This document shows, one piece after another, positions 44,055 to 59,476 of a stretch of DNA of 64,000 nt. A model generated the notes under the pieces. It was not told the DNA's origin and did not search any database. It worked only from the letters and a program-made list of their open reading frames with translations. Position 1 is the first letter of the stretch. Each line of letters starts with the position of its first letter. The DNA comes from Desulfatiglandales bacterium (GTDB lineage: Bacteria; Desulfobacterota; DSM-4660; Desulfatiglandales; Desulfatiglandaceae): assembly GCA_963666345.1 (NCBI GenBank), contig OY762721.1, positions 3,360,001 to 3,424,000 on the forward strand, given 5' to 3'. The position numbers and the translations under genes were made by a program.

Positions 44055-44081
44055 TACAATTAGCCCTTGAGTTAATATGGC

Positions 44082-44097
44082 TTGAAATCCCATATTT
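44082..44097. repeat. attL core TTGAAATCCCATATTT
   Basis: Exact 16-bp direct repeat with 59461-59476, ~54 bp from the integrase stop. Confidence 0.85.
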
Positions 44098-44150: not shown

Positions 44151-44852
44151 TTAGTGCTTCCCGTTCCCTTCATTGCTAACGGTTTTGCTAACATTTTTCC
44201 TGAAGGTCTCTAATATCTTTATTGCCTGGATTTTGTCTTGATCGTCAATTCTGTCATACCTTGAATCCATATCTCTTGATGAATGTCCGGTGATTGACAT
44301 CCTGACAGATTTTGAAACTCCGGCCTTTCTTGCATCTGTGACAAAGGTATGCCTCAAGTCATGGAATATAAAACCACCTTTGACCCTTGATCCCCATTGA
44401 ATCCCGGCATCCTTGCAAGCCTTCATCATGGCTTTTCTGAAATAATTTATGTCTCTGTATTGAATAGAAAAAACATGATCGTCATGTATTGACCTAGGAA
44501 TCTTCTTAAGTATCTGGAAGGTCTCTTCTGATATCGGAATGCTTTTCTTTTTACTTTCCTTTGTGTCTTCAGCCTCAAGGGTTATCATTCTATGTTTTAG
44601 GTCCACCTTATCCCATGTCAGATTGACAATTTCACCTTTTCGCATCCCTGACCAGTACCCTAGGGATATAATACCTTCTAACGGTTTTTGAGAATGCTCA
44701 AAAAGGCTGCTGTATTCACTTACAGTCAATATCCTATCCCTGGCATTAGTATTTCCTTTGAGAAGTGACTTGACCCTTCTTAATGCCTTCAGTGGTTCGC
44801 CTGTTATCAGGTCGTTATCAAATGCCTTTATCACCATTGATTTCGTGTATTT
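44151..44852 (-). pseudogene. int: tyrosine integrase, catalytic domain intact but 5' part lost at the IS21 junction
   Basis: SGMRKGEI (R), TK (K), HDLRHTF (HxxR), TGH and RYD (Y). The ORF-track N-terminus MGQFWTP... is IS inverted-repeat sequence. Confidence 0.88.
44173..44198. repeat. integrase arm-type sites, left (TTGCTAAC x2)
   Basis: TTGCTAACGGTTTTGCTAACATTTTT; the same motif is tandem at 59305-59327. Confidence 0.65.
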
Positions 44853-44982
44853 TGTGAATGGTTTTTGGTTTAAGGCGGCATGCAAAAATGACCCACCTAT
44901 AGGGCGAATCGGCGTCCAAAATTGACCCACCCCTGAAAGCCTTCTATTCTGCTGTGACTATGGTAGAAGGAGGCGGAAAGGG

Positions 44983-46500
44983 ATGCTCACAGTGGAAACA
45001 ATCCGTAAGATACGATTAGCTGTTCTCAGAGATGGCAAATCCATACGTCAGACAGCGAAGGATCTGCGCCTTAGCAAAAATACAGTAAAAAAGGCGATAA
45101 GGAGCGGAGAAACATCTTTTCAGTACGAACGAAGCAACCAGCCAAGACCCAAGCTGGGGCCGTTTATAGACATGCTGAAAGGCTTTCTGGAAGAAGACGA
45201 GAAACTGCCCAAAAAACTGCGCAGGACAGCCCAGATACTTTTTGAAGAGCTGCAACTCAACGGCTACGAAGGTGGCTATGACAGCGTACGGAGATATGTT
45301 CAAAGATGGCGCCAGGATCAAAGGAGCTTGCCAAAGGAGGTATTTATACCTTTGGTATTTGATCCTGCAGAAGCCTTTCAGTTTGACTGGAGTCATGAGT
45401 GGGTAGATCTGGACGGAAGCAGAGTAAAGGCAAAGGTTGCACATATAAGGTTATGTCACAGCCGCTACTTCCTTTGTATTGCCTACCCCAGAGAAACCCA
45501 GGAGATGGTGTTTGATGCCCATATCAGGGCCTTTGAGTTTTTTGGGGGAGTTTGCCGTAAAGGCATCTATGACAATCTCAAAACAGTGGTTAACAAGATC
45601 CTGGGAGGAAGGGAAAGACAGTTCAACAGCCGCTTCAGCCAACTGTGTTCCCATTATTTATTTGAACCGGTAAGCTGCACCCCTGCTGCAGGTTGGGAAA
45701 AGGGTCAGGTGGAAAACCAGGTAGGTGTGGTCAGAAGGAGATTTTTCACTCCCCGAATCAAGGCCAGGGATTTCACACACCTAAACGAGCTGCTTAGAGA
45801 ACAATGCATCACCTGGGCAAAGACCCGTAAGCATCCAACAATATCTGATAAGACGGTTTGGCAGGTCTACAGTGAAGAGAGACCCTATCTGATAAATCTA
45901 CCACCTCTCTTTGATGGATATGCACAACGTCCAGCCAGGGTTACCCCCAGCTCACTTGTAACCTATGACCGGAACCGATACAGCGTTAATTGCAGCCAGG
46001 TGGGTAAAGCGGTCTATATGAGAGTATATGCCGATCGGATAGTGATAGTAAATAACGGTTGTATCGTAGGAGAGCATGATAGGCATTTTGGAAAGAACAA
46101 GACTATTTTTAATCCCTGGCATTATGTCCCGGTCCTTGAACGTAAGCCCGGGGCTCTCCGTAATGGAGCCCCCTTTAAAGACTGGCAACTTCCCGATCCT
46201 GTCGAAGGCGTCCTAAATGGGCTTCAAAACCGTTTTTCCGACTGGGACCGTCAGTTTGTGGCCATTCTAAATGCTGTTCCTTTCTACGGACTTGAGGCTG
46301 TAAGTAAAGCCTGTAAGGAGGCCCTAAAGATAAGGGCCGTAAGTAAAGAGGTGGTTCTCAATCTTTTAAACAGGGATCAGGATCAGGATTGCACGCCTGA
46401 TTTGGGTATCCCCTCCCATCTGATTCTCAAGCAAGAGCCCATAGCAGACTGCCGCCGCTATGAACGTTTGGTAAGGGAGGGATACCATGCTGCGCAATGA
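44983..46500 (+). CDS. istA: IS21 transposase
   Basis: N-terminal HTH; DDE triad FQFDW / YDNLK / WEKGQVE; RYSV. Confidence 0.96.
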
Positions 46501-47218
46501 TATCATGGACCAGATGGAAAAACTAAAGTTGCGGGGTATGCAGTCCATTTATGATGAAGTTGTCTCCAATGGACGCAAGAGCCATTCAACGCCTGAAAAG
46601 GTAATCCTGGAACTGCTCAAGGCTGAAGCTGCCGAAAGATATATAAGGAGTATCCGATATCGTATGGGACAGGCCAGGTTTCCTGTCCTTAAAGATATCG
46701 ATGGCTTTGATTTTAACGGGGCCTGTGTTGATGAAGCCCAGATTAGGTCTATTTATCAGGGTGATTTTATAGCCGAACATATCAACCTGATTTTTGTAGG
46801 TGGCACCGGTACGGGCAAAACCCATTTAGCCATAACTATAGCGGCCCAGGCCATAAGGAATGGCAGGAAGTGCAAGTTTTATAACCTGGTGGATCTGGCA
46901 AATGAGCTTGAGCAGGAGAAAATGATTGGATTGGCCGGCAAAATCACAGCAAGACTACTTCGATTTGATCTTGTGGTCCTCGATGAACTGGGTTATCTGC
47001 CTTTTTCCAAAAACGGCAGTCAACTGCTCTTTCATCTTATATCAAAACTCTACGAACAGACATCCATAGTAATCACCACCAACTTGACCTTCGGTGAATG
47101 GCCCCAAGTCTTTGGAGATAAAAAAATGACTACGGCCATGCTTGATCGGTTGACTCATCATTGTGAAATTATAGAAACAGGTAACGAAAGCTGGAGAATG
47201 AAACACGCAGCTTCATAG
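46487..47218 (+). CDS. istB: IS21 helper ATPase
   Basis: [33 protein letters not shown]. Confidence 0.96.
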
Positions 47219-47321
47219 ATAAAGAAGGGATCAACTACTCAACTATTTAACCATATTTTTTTCTCAGGGGTGGGTCAATTTTGGACGCCGATGATGGGTC
47301 AATTTTCAACGCCTATTGACA

Positions 47322-49423
47322 TTCAGGTAGTCGCCTACAATAGAAGGGTCTAGGACATTGATATTTCTTACTCTTAATTCGGGAGTTACGCTTTCCTTGT
47401 CTACCTGTGCCAAGTTATTCATAGGGGATACTTTCTCCGGTCCCCTTTCTCCAAATTCATAGAGTTGTCCGCTTTCCCCAATACCCTTGATATGCTCGTT
47501 TATTGTCCCGCCACCAGCCATGAACTGCACCGGGTTATCAAAATTCGGAGTAAACCCACCACTAAACATCCCGGTAATTGCGCCTGCCGCTTTACTTATC
47601 AAACCATTACCTGAAGACCCTCCGGTCAAGGTATTAAATAGCGGTTCAATGGTGTACTTCTGAAGCATCATTTGTGTAACCATTTTTGAATATGATTTCA
47701 GGATGTCATTAAAAGAGGTATCAGCACCCCAGACCATTTCATTGAGGGTGCTTGACCATGAAGAGGCCCAACCGGACATAGCGTTTTCAAGTTCATTACT
47801 CAAAGACTTGACTTCGGTCTTCTGCTTTTCATAATAGACCTCTGTTAATTGCTCTATGGCTTTCTGTTTGGCCTCTTCATCTTGAATGCTTTTTTCTATA
47901 TATTCCCGCTGTACGTCGTACCAGTCAGACAGCCTTTGTTCTTCAGTCTGGAAATGTTCATTCCATAGGGTTTGGATGTCCTTTATGGTATCGCTTTCTA
48001 AGCTGATCCTGGCTTCCCAACCTTCAATGTTAAGTTGGTTCTCCTGTCTTATCCTGTCCGCTGCGGCTGCTAGTCTTTCTATGTCTGCGTTTCTGTTTGC
48101 CTTTGAAATGAATGCCAGTTTGTCGGCCTCAGTCAGCCCGGTAACTTTTGGCTGTATTGTTTTAATGTTCGCTGCTTTAGGGGTGAAAGAGGAAAAATCC
48201 GGCTGGGAAAGCATCCAACTATCTTTGATCTTGTTAAGCTCGGCATATTGCTGTCTGTTCTGAAGGTCTGAAATGGTCTTGTCTATCAATGCAATATTAG
48301 CAGTCAGCCTTTTTGCGCCCTCTCTTGCCTCTTCTTTCGTGATATATCCCGGCACCCATGCAAGGGCCTTGTCAGTAAAGTCTGATCCTGTAGTGGCACT
48401 CTGAAACTTATTCAGTTCCTTTTGTAGGTCTTCTCGCTGTTCTTTAAGCCTACCCATGACTGTATCAGGACCATACAGAAGCCCGGCCCACCACTCAGCG
48501 GCAAAGGCAACACTACCCACCGCGCCACCAGCGGCACTACTCACCAGCTTTAAAGACTGCGCGATATTTCCCAAATAAGTTGGGATATCCTGTCTTAAAA
48601 ATTCCTGATTCTGTGCAACCCAACTGGTCATGTCTTCGGCGATTTCTGCAATGCTAGGAGCTGCGGAAATAACAGCACTCGTCATTTGTGTTTTTATAAC
48701 AGTTGATAGGTCTGTTAATCTGTCATTTGCCGTTGCTGACCCCCGGATAAGGTGTTCATCTATGGCAAGGCCAAGACGTTCAAAAGTGGCCCTTAGCTCT
48801 TCTACTGACTTCATGCCGCCCTTTACGACATTGGTCATTCCCACACCAGCCGACCGGCCAAAAGCGGCAGATGAAAAAGCGGCCTTGTCCGTTGCATTCT
48901 CAATACCGGCCATTCGGTTTATGTAAATATCAAGGGCTTCCCCGGTTGTGTTCGTGGCTACAAGCTGATTTAATAGCTCTTCATCGTATTTCTTCAGATA
49001 GGTGAGCATCGCCCCGGTACCAACCTTGAGTTCACCTATTCGCTTTGTGAATGCTTCCAGGGCTCCATCGAGTTTGCCGGTTTCAACCCCCGAACGTTCA
49101 GCCATAAACCTATATTCCTGAAGTTTATCGGTAGATATGCCTATTCTGTCTGCTGTCTTTCCGATCGTGTCAGCGGCATCAATATTTCTTTTGATCAGAT
49201 ACCCTAGACCAGTTGCACCAGCCGCTAGAACCATGCCGCTCCTGAAGTTTAAAACTGACTTTCTTAAGGAGGTCCATTGCCGTTCAGCCTTTGCAAGATA
49301 TCTGTTTGTTTTGGCTGAAAAGGAATTGACTGAGCTGGCCGCGCTTCTTAGGTCTGCTTTGAATTTATCATCATTGACAATCAGGTCAGTTACCAGACTG
49401 CCAATGTCCATTTTATTTGCCAT
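47322..49423 (-). CDS. phage tail tape-measure protein (lambda-like), extreme C-terminus cut by IS21
   Basis: N-terminal IGSLVTDL...FKADL; D.IGK.ADRIG...LQEYRF.AE.SG; Ala-rich helical/coiled-coil body; C-terminal MAGGG...GERGPE...INVLDPS. Confidence 0.82.
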
Positions 49424-49698
49424 TACGTCTCCTTTCCTTAAAAATAAGCCCCAGGATCGTTTTTTGACTTAGACATATACATATTCAACCCTAGGGTAAT
49501 ATATTAAATACAACCTCGTGCCGATTAAGGCCCATAAAAGGCGCATTTTAGTTTGACACTAGATAGAGGTTCCCCCAGGCGGCTAAGAAGGCGCAAAACC
49601 GCCCAGGGGATAGGGGGGCTGTCCAGGCCCCAACTTTCTTGTTATGACTTGGAATGCTTTTCATTATAGTGTTTTATGGATCTAGCCTCTCGCTTCCT

Positions 49699-50235
49699 TT
49701 ATTCAAAATCTTTTGCCGTCAATATTTCCGGCTCAAAATCGGCATCCTTCAATCTGCTTTTCTCCGCGTCTGTCAAAAGCCCCACTCGATCCAAGTAAGC
49801 GGCCTGTGATTCAACAATTAACCGTTCATCCGGGTTAAACTCATAGGGGTCTAATATTGGTACTCCAAAAACAAAAGATTGTGTCTCTTCAAGCGGCTCT
49901 TCATCTGGTTTTCTTTGGTAATTTTGGGGGCATTCCAAGATTTTGCGATTTCCCGGCGCTTCAAGCTGCCACCATGCAAACGGTTTTTGCCCTGGATGTT
50001 CCTTTAACCAGCTTATAACCGTTGCTGAATTTTTAATTTCAGCCCATGTTTCAAACCATGTCGGTCCTTTACCATGCCTGACTGAAGGTTCACCCGGTAT
50101 GGCCCAACAAAATGAAAAACCCCTAAAACCTTCATTTTGTGGCTCATCCCCAGTAAGTAAAAATTTCACTTGCCAATCTTCAAGGCTATTGGCGTTTACT
50201 CTTTTTCTTGTAATTTTTTTCCTTTTTGTTGGCAT
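49699..50235 (-). CDS. hypothetical phage-satellite protein
   Basis: Starts 1 bp after the terS stop, with GGAG RBS; basic N-terminus; PG.KP.AWW and ESQAAYL.R.GLL motifs. Confidence 0.7.
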   Translation of the reverse strand: MPTKRKKITRKRVNANSLEDWQVKFLLTGDEPQNEGFRGFSFCWAIPGEPSVRHGKGPTWFETWAEIKNSATVISWLKEHPGQKPFAWWQLEAPGNRKILECPQNYQRKPDEEPLEETQSFVFGVPILDPYEFNPDERLIVESQAAYLDRVGLLTDAEKSRLKDADFEPEILTAKDFE

Positions 50236-50236
50236 T

Positions 50237-50581
50237 CTAGCTCCTTCCGCCTGGCCTTCCCGGTTTGTCCCTTAGCGGTTCAATGTCCAGGTTTAAGGCC
50301 CTTAACGCGTGGAATTTTTGTCCCCTGGCATCGCGTTCAATCCCTAATAGAGGATGTAATTTTTTCTGTTGAAAACGGTCCAAAATAGTTTGACCTTCCT
50401 TTTTAATCTGCTTGCGGCATTTGATCTCTCGCGACTCTGCGTTCCCGTATTGCTGTAAAAGCAGTAATCCGGCAACATCATTAATAAGATATTCGTCAGC
50501 TAAAGATTCTATTCTTAAAACAGTCTCTTTTGGCCAATGTTTACATGGCCTCAAGTGACTTGGTACGTCATTCCAGTCCAT
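50237..50581 (-). CDS. terS: phage terminase small subunit, P27 (HK97-like cos) family
   Basis: D.AGLLLL...I.KEG.TI.DRF.Q.K.HPLL..ERDAR...L.ALNLD.EP...PGRP pattern; GAGGAG RBS. Confidence 0.72.
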   Translation of the reverse strand: MDWNDVPSHLRPCKHWPKETVLRIESLADEYLINDVAGLLLLQQYGNAESREIKCRKQIKKEGQTILDRFQQKKLHPLLGIERDARGQKFHALRALNLDIEPLRDKPGRPGGRS

Positions 50582-50717
50582 TCCATAGACTCCTCAATTT
50601 TTTTTAAGGAAAAACTCAATTTAAAAAAGAAATTCCTAGGCACATGGTTATAGGCATAGGTCGTATAAGGCTATATAGGCCCCCCTGTAAAAGGGGGGAC
50701 CGCTAAACCCGACTGGC

Positions 50718-51443
50718 TTATAGTTTGGCTAGTTTTGCGTCAATCCTTGCAACCCTTGAAGCAAGATCTTCGTCAGTTGGTAGTAAGTGAAAGGGGTTTA
50801 TGTCGGAAACATCGCGGTCAGATTTTTCAATGTTAAAGTCTTCTAGTTGGTGCGGATCTGGAATATTATCCTTAAGCTTCTCAAGCAATACTTCGTCAAA
50901 CTCTGGCTCTAGCTTCATGGCCTCAAGCAACTTGATAGATTGCTGACAGTATTCTACAGCTCTCAATATAGAATTTTTGTTGCTATAGGTAACTAGCTTC
51001 TTTTTCAGCTTGATTAAATTTAAGCCCATGTTTCGTGTTTGGCTATTGGCTTTCAACCTTCGGAAGTCAGCTAGCTTGGTATTAAAAAACTCAATCCCCC
51101 GGTCAATTTCAGGATCGTAAGTTGTATAAATAATTTCCTGCCACTTGTTTATAGCATTGTTCAACCTCGCACTCTCACCCCATTTTTTTAATCGCAACCT
51201 GTTCACTTCCTTTTCTGCATCTCTTAGGGCATCTGCTGCGGAATTCATAGTCTGTGTCGCTTTTTCAAGATCGTCATTAAGTTTGAAAATCCTCTTTTCT
51301 CCTTCCGTCTTCAGCTTGTCGATTTCCTTTGCTGCCGCCTTTCGTTTTTTAATGACTTCGCGTTCTGCTGCTTCCCGCGCTGCTCTTATTCCTGCTGATT
51401 CTTCAATCTCCTTAAGCCTTTTCTCTAATGCTGTGTTTTCCAT
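50718..51443 (-). CDS. coiled-coil hypothetical protein
   Basis: ATG 51443 after GGAGG; E/K/A-rich heptad-like N-terminal half. Confidence 0.75.
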   Translation of the reverse strand: MENTALEKRLKEIEESAGIRAAREAAEREVIKKRKAAAKEIDKLKTEGEKRIFKLNDDLEKATQTMNSAADALRDAEKEVNRLRLKKWGESARLNNAINKWQEIIYTTYDPEIDRGIEFFNTKLADFRRLKANSQTRNMGLNLIKLKKKLVTYSNKNSILRAVEYCQQSIKLLEAMKLEPEFDEVLLEKLKDNIPDPHQLEDFNIEKSDRDVSDINPFHLLPTDEDLASRVARIDAKLAKL

Positions 51444-51472
51444 AATGCCTCCATTTTGTTTAGTGTTTTTGT

Positions 51473-51670
51473 TTATAAAGCCCCACATCTTTTAAGGATC
51501 TTCTTTCGGCGTATATTTGCCTGCAGTCTCTTTGCTCTTTTACGGTCTGATTTTTTGGGGTTTTTCAACCTTTCAGAGAGGGTCTTGAAACTGCCGTCTT
51601 TCTCAACTTTTTTCCTAAGTTTCAAGATCGCTAATCGAAGGTCACTTTTCCCCACCTTGACGCTAAGCAT
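51473..51670 (-). CDS. rpsU: ribosomal protein bS21 homologue (65 aa), element-encoded
   Basis: MLSVKVGKSDLRLAILKLRKKVEKDGSFKTLSERLKNPKKSDRKRAKRLQANIRRKK follows the S21 pattern (VKV...A..K.KK..EK.G...K.S..RKRAK); ATG 51670 after GGAAGGGA. Confidence 0.7.
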   Translation of the reverse strand: MLSVKVGKSDLRLAILKLRKKVEKDGSFKTLSERLKNPKKSDRKRAKRLQANIRRKKILKRCGAL

Positions 51671-51740
51671 AACTATCCCTTCCAGGCATCGCTTGCCTTT
51701 TGTGTGCTGTTCAGTGTTAATTGTATAATTGATAAGAGAT

Positions 51741-51944
51741 TTAATTTTGGGAGTAGGGAAGGGATTCAATAAACTTTCTGACATCAACGGAGTCAAATAG
51801 AACTCGGCGGCCTAACCGCTTGGCCTTGATAGGAAAAGGGTTCTTTGCTTTACGACAAATCCTATTTCGTATGGTGCGCGGTGAAAGGTTTAATCTATTG
51901 GCAACCTGTTCAACTGATAACAGTTGCCGCTGCTCCTGGCTCAT
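51741..51944 (-). CDS. AlpA/excisionase-like HTH DNA-binding protein
   Basis: LLSVEQVANRLNLSPRTIRN...FP....LGRRVLF...DV.KFI. Confidence 0.85.
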   Translation of the reverse strand: MSQEQRQLLSVEQVANRLNLSPRTIRNRICRKAKNPFPIKAKRLGRRVLFDSVDVRKFIESLPYSQN

Positions 51945-52119
51945 GACGCCCCCCTTTGGTTAAATTGTTATTGTTGACAAGACATCGGAAACACTTATTC
52001 TTAAGAATCCTTTTTAATACCTCGTAACCCTTTGTATTATCAGATTCAGTTAGACCCTGAATCCTAACGCTTTCAATCGGACATCCTTTGTCTGATTTAC
52101 ATTCAAAAGTTATTTCCAA
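51910..52119 (-). CDS. small hypothetical protein (69 aa, Cys-containing)
   Basis: TTG at 52119 after AGGAGG; lies in the co-oriented operon between primase and AlpA. Confidence 0.5.
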   Translation of the reverse strand: MEITFECKSDKGCPIESVRIQGLTESDNTKGYEVLKRILKNKCFRCLVNNNNLTKGGRHEPGAAATVIS

Positions 52120-52217
52120 GAATCCACCTCCTTTAATTGTTTTTAGCCCCTGTTCTAATTTTTTATTGCCCGCCCGTTCCCGGTCCCCGGAGCTAGCGAA
52201 GGACCACACCAAATATG

Positions 52218-53834
52218 TTATTTATGCCATTTATCTGTTGGCACAATTTCGCACCCCTTAACGATCTTAAAAGTTCGCTTTAGGTAATTTGGGTTATGTC
52301 CCTGCCTTGCCCAGGCTTTAGCCTTCCTGATTGTGATAATGGTTCCGTCTGGCGGATTCTGGTCAAGATTTAGATAAAGCCTCGGTTTCTCAAGGCCAAA
52401 GTCTCCGCCCCGCCCCTCTGCCTTATCTTGTGACTTCTGAAGACATACAATGCAGATTCCTTTGTCTAGCTTTTCATATATCCGCTTTAGGTCCGCCGAT
52501 ATCTTCCAGAAGTCAGAGCTAATTTCATAAAAGTCAATTATATTGAAGTCATTCGGTAGGATTGCATCTGAGAAGTTTGAGGACCTTTCCCTGAAGTCAA
52601 GAGACTTCCATTCATCAAGAGGTACAGGAAACAGCTTTAATCTTGTCTTTAGTTCCTGACTTCCCATTTCTGAGGAAAGATAACGCACCTTGTGGCGCTT
52701 CCTGTTCATATAGGCAAGGTTTAAGGCAAGGGCGCTTTTGCCTGCGTTTTGGGTCCCTGCGATTACAGCAATGTTTTTAGGATATAGCGTTGCAAGTTTT
52801 TCGATCCCTAGAGGCCATTGAATATTAAAGGGTGCATCATCTGCCGTTTGCCAGTCTATGGCATCGCATTCAGACTCAACCTTTCGATACTGCCCGCGCT
52901 TGTTTCCGTATTTCTCAATTATTCCTTCTGCCTTGAGTCTTGACAAATAGACCTTTACAGCGTTTCTTTCTTCCCTTGTTACTATCTGTAACTCTTTGTA
53001 ACTATCTGTTACTAAAAAGTAACCATCTGTTACTAACACCCACTCGCGGACCTCTTCAGCAAGGTTCCTCTCGCGCCTCTGTAACCTTTTCATGGCTGAT
53101 TGAATTTTTACTGAAATATCTCTTTCAGGATATGGAGGATTGCAGGCTTTTGATGCTATAACCCTAAGATATTGCTGTATTTCTTCTTGAGGCATCCCGC
53201 CTTTTACAAGATAATTGGTAAGGTGAAAAAGGTCATTATCACGACGGCCTTGTGTAAGTAAATTGTTACTATCTGTTACTATTTGTAACCTTTTGTTACT
53301 ATCTGGACTGGACCCCTCTATATAAATGCTTTTATTTAAAGAATTATATATAGGCTGCGGCAGCGGCTCGGTTTGAACCTCGCCTAATGACTTACCCGGT
53401 ACCCAGGCATAAGGCTTGCCGTTTTCTCCAATGCTTGGAGGTGCGACGATATATCCGCCCTGACCCCGGTAATCGACATCTTGAATAAAGCCTGTTGCAT
53501 TGCCTAGGCCCTCTCTATGACTAACGTATAAATGCCGACCTCCGCGCGGCGTTGTCGCTTCTGCCGTTTTAAACCCTTCAGGAAGTAGCTTTGTGACCTC
53601 AGAAAAGCCCTTGCCTGAATCAATGTCTATGACATCAACATTGCTTAGATCACCTGTGACAATGCCGATATTTGCATCAGGCCACTTTTGCCACCATTCA
53701 TTGACTTGATCCGTAGTCGGCCTTTCTTTTTGGAATTTTTCCCATTTGACTAGGGGCTTTTTGCCCTTTGCCTGAATGGGAATTACTGAAAGCCCTGCGC
53801 TTTCATACCTTAAGGCATCGTTTGAAAAGTTCAT
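52218..53834 (-). CDS. bifunctional primase-polymerase (Prim-Pol + PriCT) fused to a P-loop helicase
   Basis: G.SVIP...K.P.V.W, WW..WPDANIG..TG...VIDID, TPRGG.H, D.RG.GGYIVAPPS; QGRRDNDLF (PriCT); Walker A GTQNAGKS; IIDF. Confidence 0.9.
   Translation of the reverse strand: MNFSNDALRYESAGLSVIPIQAKGKKPLVKWEKFQKERPTTDQVNEWWQKWPDANIGIVTGDLSNVDVIDIDSGKGFSEVTKLLPEGFKTAEATTPRGGRHLYVSHREGLGNATGFIQDVDYRGQGGYIVAPPSIGENGKPYAWVPGKSLGEVQTEPLPQPIYNSLNKSIYIEGSSPDSNKRLQIVTDSNNLLTQGRRDNDLFHLTNYLVKGGMPQEEIQQYLRVIASKACNPPYPERDISVKIQSAMKRLQRRERNLAEEVREWVLVTDGYFLVTDSYKELQIVTREERNAVKVYLSRLKAEGIIEKYGNKRGQYRKVESECDAIDWQTADDAPFNIQWPLGIEKLATLYPKNIAVIAGTQNAGKSALALNLAYMNRKRHKVRYLSSEMGSQELKTRLKLFPVPLDEWKSLDFRERSSNFSDAILPNDFNIIDFYEISSDFWKISADLKRIYEKLDKGICIVCLQKSQDKAEGRGGDFGLEKPRLYLNLDQNPPDGTIITIRKAKAWARQGHNPNYLKRTFKIVKGCEIVPTDKWHK
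52977..53352. repeat. iteron arrays plus AT-rich tract (putative replication origin within the primase gene)
   Basis: TGT(T/A)ACTATC-like units at 10-11 bp spacing: six at 52977-53037 and four at 53264-53303, followed by an AT-rich tract at ~53319-53352. Confidence 0.65.
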
Positions 53835-53901
53835 TTTGTTCTAGCTCCTATCCCGGACACTCCGCCCGGAAGTTGGCTTTCAAGAAGCTCGGAGTTAGGT
53901 G

Positions 53902-54096
53902 TTAAAAAACCTCTTTTTCACTGACCCCCAGGAAATGACAGATTTTTTCCTTCATTTCCTGCGTGGGCGTTTCGTACCCTCGGATAACCTTTGAAACTCG
54001 GCTTTCTGCAATCCGTGTTTGAAATGCCAAATCTCTTTGGCTTACACCCTTCAGAAAAATTGCATTCCGTAACTTGATATTTCTTTCAGTTTCCAT
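53902..54096 (-). CDS. XRE-family HTH regulator
   Basis: LRNAIFLKGVSQRDLA...ESRVSKVIRG...ICHFLGV...VF; ATG 54096 after GGAGG. Confidence 0.85.
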   Translation of the reverse strand: METERNIKLRNAIFLKGVSQRDLAFQTRIAESRVSKVIRGYETPTQEMKEKICHFLGVSEKEVF

Positions 54097-54358
54097 GATC
54101 ACCTCCCTTAAATAAATATTGTTTGAATCTACGGTAAAAAAACATTTCTCCTTCCCGTCATTGACAATTTAGACAAAATTATCTGTTTTATCTTGTCAAT
54201 TTGGTATCTTATCCGCCTATGCGGATAAATCATACCCGGCCCCGATACTCTACTAGCTATCTGCTTATAGGTAAGTGGTGGATCTCCATAAAAAAGACTT
54301 AGGCATTTGTTTTGAAGTTAGGTTCTGGGGAAGGAGAAATATCAGACAGATATAAACG

Positions 54359-54940
54359 ATAAATCAAATTACTGATTTATATGAATCAAAAAAAAGACTG
54401 TTAAAGAATGCCTTCCGCTATGGCGTTGAGGTTGACAAGTAGAAGAGACCTTCGATTACCTAGCTTATGGGTAAGCTCTCTGTGTTTATGTGAACGATGA
54501 ACCTTGATATGCTCCGACACTTCCACTGTGTACCATTCATTAGTGTTGCCGATAAAATTGTTGGGGTCTAGGAAATCGAAATTCGGTTCGTTTCTAAATT
54601 CTTTGTATAGTTGAAAAAATCTCTTTATCTTGCGGAACTCAATGTTTAATTCGGCCAGTTCTTTAATTAATGCTAACTCTAGTAAGTTCCTTTTTGTATA
54701 TCTGCGGGGGACACCTCTTCCAGGCTGCTTGCTGTCTTCTTCAAGCGTCAACAGCCCTTCATCTGAATAGAACTGTATCCGTCGCCCTGGTAGGCCAATA
54801 AGTTTTTCAATATCTTTTCGGGTGTATGTTTCCATAATTTAAAAGTCGTAATCAGATTTATGATTTATAATAAAGTAAAAAAAATATATGTCAAGCGCTA
54901 ATGCTGCATTGATGGGCCATAAATCAGATTAATGGTTATT
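54359..54940. promoter_or_regulatory. three ATAAATCA-N6-TGATTTAT operator-like palindromes around the MerR-like gene
   Basis: Perfect copy at 54359-54380; variants at 54847-54868 and 54919-54940. Confidence 0.5.
54401..54835 (-). CDS. MerR-like winged-HTH regulator
   Basis: YT.KDI..LIGL..RRIQFY..EGLL...GRG..RRYT..NL.EL.LIKEL. Confidence 0.82.
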   Translation of the reverse strand: METYTRKDIEKLIGLPGRRIQFYSDEGLLTLEEDSKQPGRGVPRRYTKRNLLELALIKELAELNIEFRKIKRFFQLYKEFRNEPNFDFLDPNNFIGNTNEWYTVEVSEHIKVHRSHKHRELTHKLGNRRSLLLVNLNAIAEGIL

Positions 54941-56402
54941 CCCTTTCACTAATAAGCATAAATTCCTAAAATGTTATATATCTTATTGATATTAAATCCA
55001 AATTAGTCAATGGGCGTTTTTACGAAAAAACCGTGTTCTGTGTACTCGTCTTTATATTTTGAAAAGTCTATTCTGTCTTCAGGGTAATTTCTTGGCATTA
55101 AATCATATTCTCGGCCTAGATCCAGACTTTTAAGCTTTGCACAGGTCCCGCACTGTTCTTTCGGTAATCCATGAATACAGAGAAAGCAGAAAGATTCTGG
55201 CCCATTGCTTGAATTATCTAAATAACGCCGCTCAATAAATAAATTGTCCTTATCGAATCTTTTCAGAATATCATCGGCTTGGGTTATGTTGTTTACCAAA
55301 AACCCCTGGCAAACCTGGCTCCGCTTGCCTACTTCATTGTTTATAAGCAAAAGGGAATAGCCATCTGTTCCACAAGAAGTCGTTCTAAAGAACTTTAGAA
55401 ATTTATACAAGCCTTGCTGTATGTATGGGGTGCATTCCTTGCACTTTGCCGATCCAACATCCCTGTGACATAAATCACATAGTAAGCCCCTGGAGCTTTG
55501 TCCCTTTCTTGTGTCTGTCTTTTCAGGTTCTTTATATTTTAATGCAAGGCTTGCTTCAATAAAACTTCCCTGTTCAATGGTTAATTTAAACGGGTCTGAT
55601 TCCCCCCTAGATCCTATTGATTCTAACCCGTTATCAATAAGGGTCTGCCCCGGTTTTTCTCCTGTTCCCCTGTCAATTTTACCAAACACTTCAAAAAGTT
55701 CTTTATCATCAAACTTATCATTATATTGATTATATGAAAATTCCGGTTTCCAGTTTTCCTCATCAAAAGGTTTTTGCTTTGGCATCGCACGGACACCGAT
55801 TAACCAAAAAATCTTCATCATTCTATGTAAGCTGATTCTGTTTTTTATGTACCTTAAAGGATCTTGAAGTAGTGGGATAGCTTCGCCATTTACAGCAAGC
55901 ATCTTTCCCTTATCGGCTCTAAGTGCATAATGAAAGGCGTAATCACAATTATATTTTGTCCCCAGCCCGGCAAGTTTTTTTCTGCTCGCTTTATTTAACG
56001 GGTCCCTATTCATAAAAGCATAAAGGGGCAGACAGGGGATAAGCGCATCTTTCAAACCTGTATGCTTGCATAGATCTTTGAAAAATCTCTTTAGGTATGG
56101 CTTTTTTGTCAAAGATCCATCTTTTATTTTTTTTCTTTTTGCAGATTGAATTAAGTTATCAACCTTTTTTGTATCAACCTCCATTAAATATGCTGCGTCT
56201 GGATATTTATACTTTTGACCATAAACTAAATTTAAGGCCATGTTTTCTTGAATGGAAAGCCCTTCAATGTTAGCCCATTCGGTTCTATTGTGAATCGGCA
56301 TGCAAAAATGACCCACCTATAGGGCGAATCGGCGTCCAAAATTGACCCACCCCTGAAAGCCTTCTATTCTGCTGTGACTATGGTAGAAGGAGGCGGAAAG
56401 GG

Positions 56403-57920
56403 ATGCTCACAGTGGAAACAATCCGTAAGATACGATTAGCTGTTCTCAGAGATGGCAAATCCATACGTCAGACAGCGAAGGATCTGCGCCTTAGCAAAAA
56501 TACAGTAAAAAAGGCGATAAGGAGCGGAGAAACATCTTTTCAGTACGAACGAAGCAACCAGCCAAGACCCAAGCTGGGGCCGTTTATAGACATGCTGAAA
56601 GGCTTTCTGGAAGAAGACGAGAAACTGCCCAAAAAACTGCGCAGGACAGCCCAGATACTTTTTGAAGAGCTGCAACTCAACGGCTACGAAGGTGGCTATG
56701 ACAGCGTACGGAGATATGTTCAAAGATGGCGCCAGGATCAAAGGAGCTTGCCAAAGGAGGTATTTATACCTTTGGTATTTGATCCTGCAGAAGCCTTTCA
56801 GTTTGACTGGAGTCATGAGTGGGTAGATCTGGACGGAAGCAGAGTAAAGGCAAAGGTTGCACATATAAGGTTATGTCACAGCCGCTACTTCCTTTGTATT
56901 GCCTACCCCAGAGAAACCCAGGAGATGGTGTTTGATGCCCATATCAGGGCCTTTGAGTTTTTTGGGGGAGTTTGCCGTAAAGGCATCTATGACAATCTCA
57001 AAACAGTGGTTAACAAGATCCTGGGAGGAAGGGAAAGACAGTTCAACAGCCGCTTCAGCCAACTGTGTTCCCATTATTTATTTGAACCGGTAAGCTGCAC
57101 CCCTGCTGCAGGTTGGGAAAAGGGTCAGGTGGAAAACCAGGTAGGTGTGGTCAGAAGGAGATTTTTCACTCCCCGAATCAAGGCCAGGGATTTCACACAC
57201 CTAAACGAGCTGCTTAGAGAACAATGCATCACCTGGGCAAAGACCCGTAAGCATCCAACAATATCTGATAAGACGGTTTGGCAGGTCTACAGTGAAGAGA
57301 GACCCTATCTGATAAATCTACCACCTCTCTTTGATGGATATGCACAACGTCCAGCCAGGGTTACCCCCAGCTCACTTGTAACCTATGACCGGAACCGATA
57401 CAGCGTTAATTGCAGCCAGGTGGGTAAAGCGGTCTATATGAGAGTATATGCCGATCGGATAGTGATAGTAAATAACGGTTGTATCGTAGGAGAGCATGAT
57501 AGGCATTTTGGAAAGAACAAGACTATTTTTAATCCCTGGCATTATGTCCCGGTCCTTGAACGTAAGCCCGGGGCTCTCCGTAATGGAGCCCCCTTTAAAG
57601 ACTGGCAACTTCCCGATCCTGTCGAAGGCGTCCTAAATGGGCTTCAAAACCGTTTTTCCGACTGGGACCGTCAGTTTGTGGCCATTCTAAATGCTGTTCC
57701 TTTCTACGGACTTGAGGCTGTAAGTAAAGCCTGTAAGGAGGCCCTAAAGATAAGGGCCGTAAGTAAAGAGGTGGTTCTCAATCTTTTAAACAGGGATCAG
57801 GATCAGGATTGCACGCCTGATTTGGGTATCCCCTCCCATCTGATTCTCAAGCAAGAGCCCATAGCAGACTGCCGCCGCTATGAACGTTTGGTAAGGGAGG
57901 GATACCATGCTGCGCAATGA
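56403..57920 (+). CDS. istA: IS21 transposase
   Basis: Protein identical to 44983-46500. Confidence 0.96.
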
Positions 57921-58638
57921 TATCATGGACCAGATGGAAAAACTAAAGTTGCGGGGTATGCAGTCCATTTATGATGAAGTTGTCTCCAATGGACGCAAGA
58001 GCCATTCAACGCCTGAAAAGGTAATCCTGGAACTGCTCAAGGCTGAAGCTGCCGAAAGATATATAAGGAGTATCCGATATCGTATGGGACAGGCCAGGTT
58101 TCCTGTCCTTAAAGATATCGATGGCTTTGATTTTAACGGGGCCTGTGTTGATGAAGCCCAGATTAGGTCTATTTATCAGGGTGATTTTATAGCCGAACAT
58201 ATCAACCTGATTTTTGTAGGTGGCACCGGTACGGGCAAAACCCATTTAGCCATAACTATAGCGGCCCAGGCCATAAGGAATGGCAGGAAGTGCAAGTTTT
58301 ATAACCTGGTGGATCTGGCAAATGAGCTTGAGCAGGAGAAAATGATTGGATTGGCCGGCAAAATCACAGCAAGACTACTTCGATTTGATCTTGTGGTCCT
58401 CGATGAACTGGGTTATCTGCCTTTTTCCAAAAACGGCAGTCAACTGCTCTTTCATCTTATATCAAAACTCTACGAACAGACATCCATAGTAATCACCACC
58501 AACTTGACCTTCGGTGAATGGCCCCAAGTCTTTGGAGATAAAAAAATGACTACGGCCATGCTTGATCGGTTGACTCATCATTGTGAAATTATAGAAACAG
58601 GTAACGAAAGCTGGAGAATGAAACACGCAGCTTCATAG
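57907..58638 (+). CDS. istB: IS21 helper ATPase
   Basis: Protein identical to 46487-47218. Confidence 0.96.
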
Positions 58639-59304
58639 ATAAAGAAGGGATCAACTACTCAACTATTTAACCATATTTTTTTCTCAGGGGTGGGTCAATT
58701 TTGGACGCCGATGATGGGTCAATTTTCAACGCCTATTGACAATTCTATTGGCTTCTATCAGATCGCTTAAATCAAAATTAGCAGTATCGCTAGCATCTAA
58801 TAACGGACCATACCTAGCTTCTGTGTCTCTAAATCTTTTATTTAAACCGTGGTTAACATATTTCCTTTTTGAATTACACATTACCCATGTCAGTGTTCGA
58901 TCTTCAAAATCATTTTCAGTTGTTGTAGTTGAAAATCTCTTGAATCTGCGCGCTGCTTTCCGATTGCAAGTATCATATCTTTCACAAGTAAAACCTTTTG
59001 CCTTGCAAGGCTTCCTGATTGTTGGCTCTTTCTTGGGGATATTTGGTTCTGTGTCTGTCTGATTGATTTTAACTGTTGGAGGTCTATTTATAGGATATAG
59101 CCAATCCTTGTAGTCATTTTCAGGCATATATAGAGATTTCCGCTTTTCGTTGGCTGGTTTCCAGCGGGTCATATCAGCCCAAAAAGTATCAGCTATGTCA
59201 GTTAATTTAAAGATAACATACCCCCATACAACCAGTTTAAGGGCCACACAATAAAACTCAAGAAAAATCAAAACGCTATTGTAAGAAATCTGGTTCATAG
59301 TCAG

Positions 59305-59366
59305 CATTTTGCTAACATTTTGCTAACACTTGGCGGAAAATACCCCCCTATGTCACCTTATGTCAC
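59305..59366. repeat. integrase arm-type/accessory sites, right
   Basis: CATTTTGCTAA x2 (59305-59326) and TATGTCAC x2 (59349-59366), inside the element near attR. Confidence 0.65.
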
Positions 59367-59460
59367 TAGGTATCATATAGGCATTTAACTTACTGAATTA
59401 ATTTAAGAATAACGTTAAATTTGACTTATTTAAGCAAAGGAAAGAAAATGTTTATGCGGG

Positions 59461-59476
59461 TTGAAATCCCATATTT
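59461..59476. repeat. attR core TTGAAATCCCATATTT
   Basis: Exact direct repeat of 44082-44097. Confidence 0.85.

Follow-up and report, generated by a model that had tools for sequence, protein, structure and literature searches.

The 64,000-nt window (the whole stretch of DNA analysed here) contains a small island that stands out by its base composition (GC 0.37–0.46 vs ~0.50 in the flanks). On the minus strand, the order of its genes is MerR-family regulator, PrimPol-PriCT-helicase replication gene, a 100-aa ORF, an AlpA-type HTH_17 gene, an S21-like gene, a gene for a 241-aa coiled-coil protein and a small terminase (TerS)-like gene, followed by a 178-aa gene, a tape-measure-like ORF and a fragment of a tyrosine integrase (Table 1). 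A preliminary description of this DNA had reported an element-encoded homologue of ribosomal protein bS21 (rpsU) between a replication and a packaging module, and this placement is borne out by the gene content, as the S21-like gene lies between the PrimPol-helicase gene and the P27-type TerS. The TerS-like protein shares 49% identity (E 2e-24) with a Terminase_4-positive gene of a related island, L027. The coiled-coil protein appears in the ORF track as a version of 256 aa, starting at 51488.

Table 1. Positions of the island genes and associated features, counted from the first nucleotide of the window.
Feature	Position	Strand	Evidence or remark
Tyrosine integrase fragment, cut by IS21 copy A	44151..44930	(-)	Pfam PF00589
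IS21-family element copy A (istA 505 aa, istB 243 aa)	44876..47321	(+)	
Tape-measure-like ORF, 705 aa	47306..49423	(-)	PHROG tape-measure families, best E 1e-27
178-aa gene	49699..50235	(-)	Homologue after TerS in island L060, 32% identity, E 5e-12
P27-type small terminase (TerS)-like gene, 114 aa	50237..50581	(-)	Pfam Terminase_4 E 0.002
Coiled-coil protein, 241 aa, no family	50718..51443	(-)	ATG at 51443 preceded by GGAGG
Divergent bS21 (rpsU-like) gene	51473..51670	(-)	65 aa + stop
Shine-Dalgarno-like, purine-rich GGAAGGGA	51676..51683	(-)	5 nt 5′ of the S21-like ATG; read from the sequence
AlpA/excisionase-type HTH_17 gene	51741..51944	(-)	PF12728 E 4.5e-9; PHROG 66; directly upstream of the S21-like gene
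PrimPol + PriCT + DnaB-like helicase replication gene	52218..53834	(-)	Pfam, PHROG
MerR-family regulator	54401..54835	(-)	Pfam PF13411 E 1.3e-10
IS21-family element copy B	56296..58741	(+)	100% identical to copy A over 2446 bp

Two further features were noted in the replication and regulatory part of the island. Iteron-like direct repeats (GTAACTATCTGTTACTA and variants) at 52976–53036 and 53263–53311 lie inside the PrimPol-helicase gene and constitute a candidate replication origin. A sigma-70-like promoter agreeing with the consensus at 11 of 12 positions (TTGACA, 16 nt spacer, TATTAT) is located at 54867–54894 on the minus strand, directly upstream of the MerR-family gene; the promoter and terminator scan of the region 49300–54900 gave a result at chance level.

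The two IS21-family copies are directly oriented and enclose the greater part of the island. The tape-measure-like ORF runs with its 3′ end into copy A, and the integrase fragment at the other end of this copy is devoid of ~150 N-terminal residues; the remainder is 50% identical to residues 158–380 of the L027 integrase. No capsid gene was found in the window's copy of the island. Since the two IS copies are identical to each other, the damage is recent, and the island copy in the window is probably immobile. Target-site duplications were not recognisable at either IS copy, so that the arrangement may stem from a cointegrate or from a rearrangement mediated by the IS. Candidate att sites are provided by an imperfect direct repeat of 27 nt (85% identity) at 44071–44097 and 59450–59476, just outside the integrase fragment and a 193-aa ORF, respectively, by which the island would extend over ~15.4 kb with both IS copies and ~10.5 kb without them. 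Two ORFs adjoin IS copy B: one of 437 aa (55003–56316) with a weak N-terminal HTH resembling sigma-70 region 4, and the 193-aa ORF (58726–59307), which belongs to no family. The latter was considered as the missing N terminus of the integrase and discarded, having no similarity to the L060 integrase or, at E 1e-3, to ORFs of L025, L026, L027, L060 and L065. The idea that the 705-aa and the 437-aa ORFs are halves of one gene is likewise unsupported, since the latter possesses its own HTH at the N terminus.

The S21-like ORF is enclosed within a 107-aa call of the ORF track (51473..51796), and the gene caller reports it in a version of 103 aa (P0002). All of the 15 aligned homologues begin where the ATG of the 65-aa ORF stands, and both longer versions would run into the upstream HTH gene. 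We therefore preferred the 65-aa start, and this reading is the correct one. The encoded protein is very basic, with 24 lysine and arginine residues vs 5 aspartate and glutamate residues. It contains VKV at residues 4–6, the segment AILKLRKKVEKDG matching the pattern AxxKxxKKxEKxG, NPKKS at residues 37–41 and RKRAK at residues 43–47. Translation, residue counts and the purine-rich GGAAGGGA thus agree with the earlier account of a very basic 65-aa ORF with its own ribosome-binding site hidden in a 107-aa call, and all motifs named in that account, including NPKKS instead of the canonical YEKPS, were found again in the translation.

Judged on its own, the window protein misses the curated family cut-offs for bS21. 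PF01165, the Pfam family that the preliminary description had named for it, does align with the protein from end to end, at a score under the threshold (E 0.21, 11.7 bits; cut-off 27), and TIGR00030 gave the same picture of an end-to-end alignment (E 0.017, 15 bits; cut-off 28.95). The host's own S21 shares 33% identity with it over 33 residues in BLASTP. Searches with the single sequence yielded no S21 match in the PDB (phmmer), no PHROGs family at E 0.01 and, in a word-indexed protein search, nothing beyond the window's own protein. A six-frame search with the 65-aa protein alone gave matches in 57 of 61 related genomes; among the 19 best loci, which were inspected, 17 represented the canonical bS21 gene, with residues 3–62 aligned, and 2 were unrelated. 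At the level of sequence, the likeness of the window protein to S21 exceeds chance.

Among 1.84 billion representative proteins, phmmer recovered four relatives besides the window's own protein (68–76 aa, E 2e-4 to 1e-3), and none of the homologues exceeded 50% identity. The four have in common, with some substitutions, a motif of the type NPKxS/T-x-R-x-RAK, which replaces the canonical YEKPS. Three of the four match PF01165 (E ~2e-4 to 5e-4), and three relatives had already been annotated as ‘ribosomal protein S21’ by JGI. A profile built from the window protein and these four metagenomic relatives (A1, 5 sequences) removed the doubt about its identity. It found canonical bS21 in 188 of the 209 genomes of the order, with per-genome E values from 6e-12 to 4e-9 among the 150 matches listed, and the host's own rpsU at E 8.9e-10. 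In the PDB it matched 38 distinct sequences, 37 of which are bS21 (best E 7.7e-6). Alignment of A1 against a canonical S21 alignment by hhalign gave 98.0% probability and E 1.8e-13 over 62 ungapped columns. Taken together, the hhalign result, the PDB matches and the recovery of canonical bS21 across the genomes of the order reveal homology over the full length at the profile level. The PF01165 cut-off was passed by two of the island-borne relatives, those of L025 (28.1 bits) and L060 (30.6 bits).

The features that the window protein has kept fit this assignment. Its size (bS21 spans about 55–75 aa), its strong basicity and its conserved core positions are those of bS21. When island and canonical sequences were aligned, G26 and K47 were invariant and R34 and A51 nearly so, and the S-x-R-x-RAK stretch of bS21 is preserved in the island protein. 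An AF2 model computed with the alignment (pLDDT 84.4) consists of three helices, at residues 11–25, 27–36 and 40–64. Compared with 48,161 PDB chains, its top two hits were bS21 chains (8fmw_U, Z 5.2, and 11bq_U, Z 4.8; rmsd ~7 Å), with Z values of VIA-align that are within the noise for helical proteins, and a single-sequence model had no match to the PDB in Foldseek. From the sequence and profile comparisons, the 65-aa protein is a genuine, highly divergent bS21 homologue, as the preliminary description had claimed.

The genome encodes a canonical rpsU elsewhere (G000:C1:2114030-2114209, 61 aa, 58.3 bits), so that the island gene is an additional copy. More than one S21 match to profile A1 was detected in 8 of the 209 genomes. 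The extra copies in G071, G183, G131 and G126 are duplicates of the canonical type or fragments at contig ends. Those in G020, G031 and G050, the last with two loci, are divergent S21-like genes of 67–73 aa inside small islands. The S21-like gene thus recurs in four other islands. In these sister islands the order is integrase, primase or replication gene, a small ORF, the S21-like gene, a small ORF or HNH gene, TerS (Terminase_4) and an HK97 capsid gene, which in one of them is fused to a prohead protease. The primase/rep genes belong to different types (DUF3987, DUF3631, PrimPol-AAA_25 or HTH_36). In all five islands, including that of the window, the S21-like gene follows the replication genes and leads the packaging and capsid genes.

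With a profile made from the island TerS (A7), 7 loci were recruited; they are distributed over 6 of the order's 209 genomes, one of which is that of the window. The S21-like gene is found at 4 of these 7 loci, always at the same position; the preliminary description had counted on such conservation among related elements. The A7 islands of G138, G170 and G175 are of the same kind, with an integrase, a DUF3987 primase or HTH_36 rep gene and TerS, and contain no S21-like ORF. Two of them, L077 (G170) and L078 (G175), possess an HK97 capsid gene, and nucleases are encoded in the islands of G138 (L076, VRR-NUC) and G175 (L078, HNH). In a sample of 401 genomes from the phylum, the TerS profile identified 11 further loci (L091–L101) in 10 genomes. 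With flanks fetched, of which 3–4 upstream ones were shortened by contig ends, none of the 11 displayed an S21-like ORF at E 0.01. These phylum loci were screened with the TerS and S21 profiles only; L076–L078 were scanned with Pfam. Because it is absent from most islands with the same terminase across the phylum, the S21-like gene is a recurrent accessory of this island type and neither a core component nor a core satellite function. Identity among the island-borne copies ranges from 18 to 41% (60% for the G050 pair), and they share 16–43% with canonical S21. Being as distant from one another as from canonical S21, they do not form one conserved satellite lineage and need not have a single origin.

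Further searches retrieved few additional loci. The PrimPol protein identified one locus in the genome contigs (L065, 34% identity), which has no S21-like ORF, and no locus in the viral contigs. A metagenome locus obtained with the alignment query A6 (L066) was rejected for having no true S21-like match. In the viral contigs, the same query found one partial locus and, on a contig of 155 kb (L067), the S21 of a large phage.

The components of the islands resemble those of phage-inducible chromosomal islands (PICI) as laid down in the SatelliteFinder definitions (de Sousa et al. 2023, PMC10085698), which include an integrase, AlpA/MerR, a primase-replicase and TerS. This core set is complete in the window's island, with an integrase truncated by IS21. 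A size of ~8–10 kb and the HNH and capsid genes of the sister islands are further traits shared with PICI or cf-PICI. In contrast to cf-PICI, for which TerL, portal and head-tail adaptor genes are defining, no Pfam match to TerL, portal or adaptor was obtained in the window's island or in the four S21-bearing sister islands, and none of these islands has a further unassigned ORF of that size. Apart from the capsid, primase and integrase genes, no ORF of the sister islands reaches the size of TerL or portal. Also unlike a PICI is the tape-measure-like ORF of the window's copy, a 705-aa ORF matching tape-measure PHROGs at E 1e-27, since the PICI model described there lists tail genes as ‘forbidden’ (PMC10085698). 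No tail or lysis family was matched by the subset of ORFs scanned in L025, L026, L027 and L060, and no unassigned ORF of tail-gene size is listed for them. It is plausible from this gene content that the islands are PICI-like satellite candidates, with a putative dependence on helper phages.

Of the ribosomal proteins encoded by viruses, bS21 is the commonest, and it has been tied almost entirely to lytic phages. In the study of Mizuno et al., no more than 3 out of 1310 viral genomes encoding bS21 had temperate markers, and a pelagiphage bS21 was described as becoming part of the 70S ribosomes of E. coli (Mizuno et al. 2019, PMC6375957). In the account of Chen et al. on 900 phages with bS21, genes for the capsid and the prohead protease were generally 2–4 genes away from bS21, and the authors proposed that, late in infection, phage bS21 is substituted into the ribosomes of the host (Chen et al. 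2022, PMC9723584). The gene studied here corresponds to the phage genes of these reports in being a mobile-element copy of ~65–75 aa that is very basic, resides a few genes from capsid or packaging genes and occurs in a host that keeps its own rpsU. It differs from them in its carrier, which is an integrative island of ~10 kb (integrase, primase, TerS, and a capsid gene in the sisters) instead of a phage genome, and in the far greater divergence of the protein, which falls under the Pfam threshold and has NPKKS for YEKPS. Another parallel is found in Francisella tularensis, for which three bS21 paralogues are described (PMC13374519), as a second, divergent bS21 exists beside a housekeeping copy within one cell. 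However, the Francisella paralogues, which specialise ribosomes, are chromosomal, whereas the extra copy here lies on a horizontally acquired island. Our literature search found no relevant report of S21 or bS21 on satellites or PICI, or together with an integrase and a small terminase. The words ‘ribosomal’ and ‘S21’ are absent from the main text of the SatelliteFinder paper (PMC10085698). What is known already is thus phage-encoded bS21, and what is added here are divergent S21 copies on satellite-like islands.

In the literature, bS21 is an exchangeable protein of the 30S platform. On balance, we lean towards the view that the S21-like ORF is a functional, fast-evolving bS21 paralogue, carried as an accessory on a PICI-like island, which would be made upon induction, occupy the bS21 site and sustain or tune initiation. 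Standing first among the packaging and morphogenesis genes, the gene would be co-expressed with them when the island is induced; the arrangement mirrors the neighbourhood of bS21 in phages. The island protein would then take the exchangeable bS21 site next to the 3′ end of the 16S rRNA, and might there support or adjust translation initiation at a time when the SD-led late mRNAs of the island need heavy translation. This role is modelled, by analogy, on the proposal for phage-encoded bS21. Expression on induction, incorporation into ribosomes and an effect on the choice of mRNAs are the parts of this reading that we infer. In the damaged island copy of the window, the gene may no longer be in use. 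A wider version, in which a group of PICI-like satellites from delta-proteobacteria of sediments carries a bS21 gene heading the packaging operon in order to re-equip host ribosomes upon induction, is doubtful at present and is offered tentatively.

The same gene order leaves room for a function away from the ribosome. A small basic protein derived from S21 could bind nucleic acids during packaging or the morphogenesis of heads, for instance by aiding TerS in DNA recognition or by neutralising the charge of DNA in small capsids, or it could act as an RNA chaperone or regulator. Its constant place immediately ahead of TerS, HNH and capsid genes would suit such tasks, and the same slot is taken by nucleases (HNH or VRR-NUC) in sister islands that are free of S21. 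Its strong divergence, with respect both to canonical S21 and to the copies on other islands, and the alteration of the canonical YEKPS motif point in this direction as well. However, the protein is collinear with bS21 over its entire length, with no gaps, and it retains the bS21-conserved G26, R34, K47, A51 and S-x-R-x-RAK, as continued selection for the same RNA-binding surface would give. Moreover, this kind of gene neighbourhood goes, in the phages described so far, with proteins that do enter ribosomes (PMC6375957, PMC9723584). We consider a career off the ribosome unlikely. An intact frame with start codon, SD site and full length also sits badly with the notion of a decaying passenger, that is, an S21 gene which a phage or island acquired in the past and which, no longer functional, now drifts in an IS-ridden, integrase-less remnant. 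Such a remnant is suggested by the truncated integrase, the two IS21 copies and the lack of a capsid gene here, and drift could also account for the lack of homologues above 50% identity among the 1.84 billion representatives and for the absence of the gene from many sister islands. Yet the perfect identity of the IS copies implies that the disruption is recent, and length, charge and motifs are kept in distant relatives, which drift would not preserve. Decay is thus quite improbable as an explanation of the gene.

Satellites commonly interfere with their helpers, and a divergent S21 might by analogy be a weapon that poisons or re-targets ribosomes, so that mRNAs of the helper phage or the host are poorly translated. 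The preliminary description had gone in this direction by proposing a translational bias toward satellite mRNAs or against the helper phage. What can be cited for it is an analogy only: bS21 content alters which mRNAs are translated in Francisella and Flavobacterium, according to the reports on these bacteria (PMC13374519, PMC9976891). The translation signals of the island and its host lend the proposed bias no support. The 3′ end of the host 16S rRNA, GGATCACCTCCTTTCT, carries the canonical anti-SD (CCUCC), most island genes have strong SD sites such as GGAGG, GAGGAG or AAGGAGA, and no unusual class of leader or SD was seen among the island genes. With ordinary SD sites on the island and a normal anti-SD in the host, there is no pointer to selective translation. 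The gene is, furthermore, dispensable in most sister islands, and we regard its use as a weapon as very unlikely.

The recurrence of bS21 in small, integrase-bearing, satellite-like islands extends tampering with the ribosome to a different class of mobile elements, and the islands offer compact test cases of ~10 kb for what an extra bS21 does. If satellites do re-equip ribosomes, translation initiation would be a battleground of satellite, helper phage and host, and bS21 would become the first known case of a phage satellite deploying a ribosomal protein. The Pfam thresholds evidently miss many divergent copies of S21, whose frequency on mobile elements is therefore probably underestimated. 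Irrespective of S21, a family of small islands that have a TerS of the P27 type in common occurs scattered across the phylum, and it looks like an uncharacterised group of satellite candidates in its own right.
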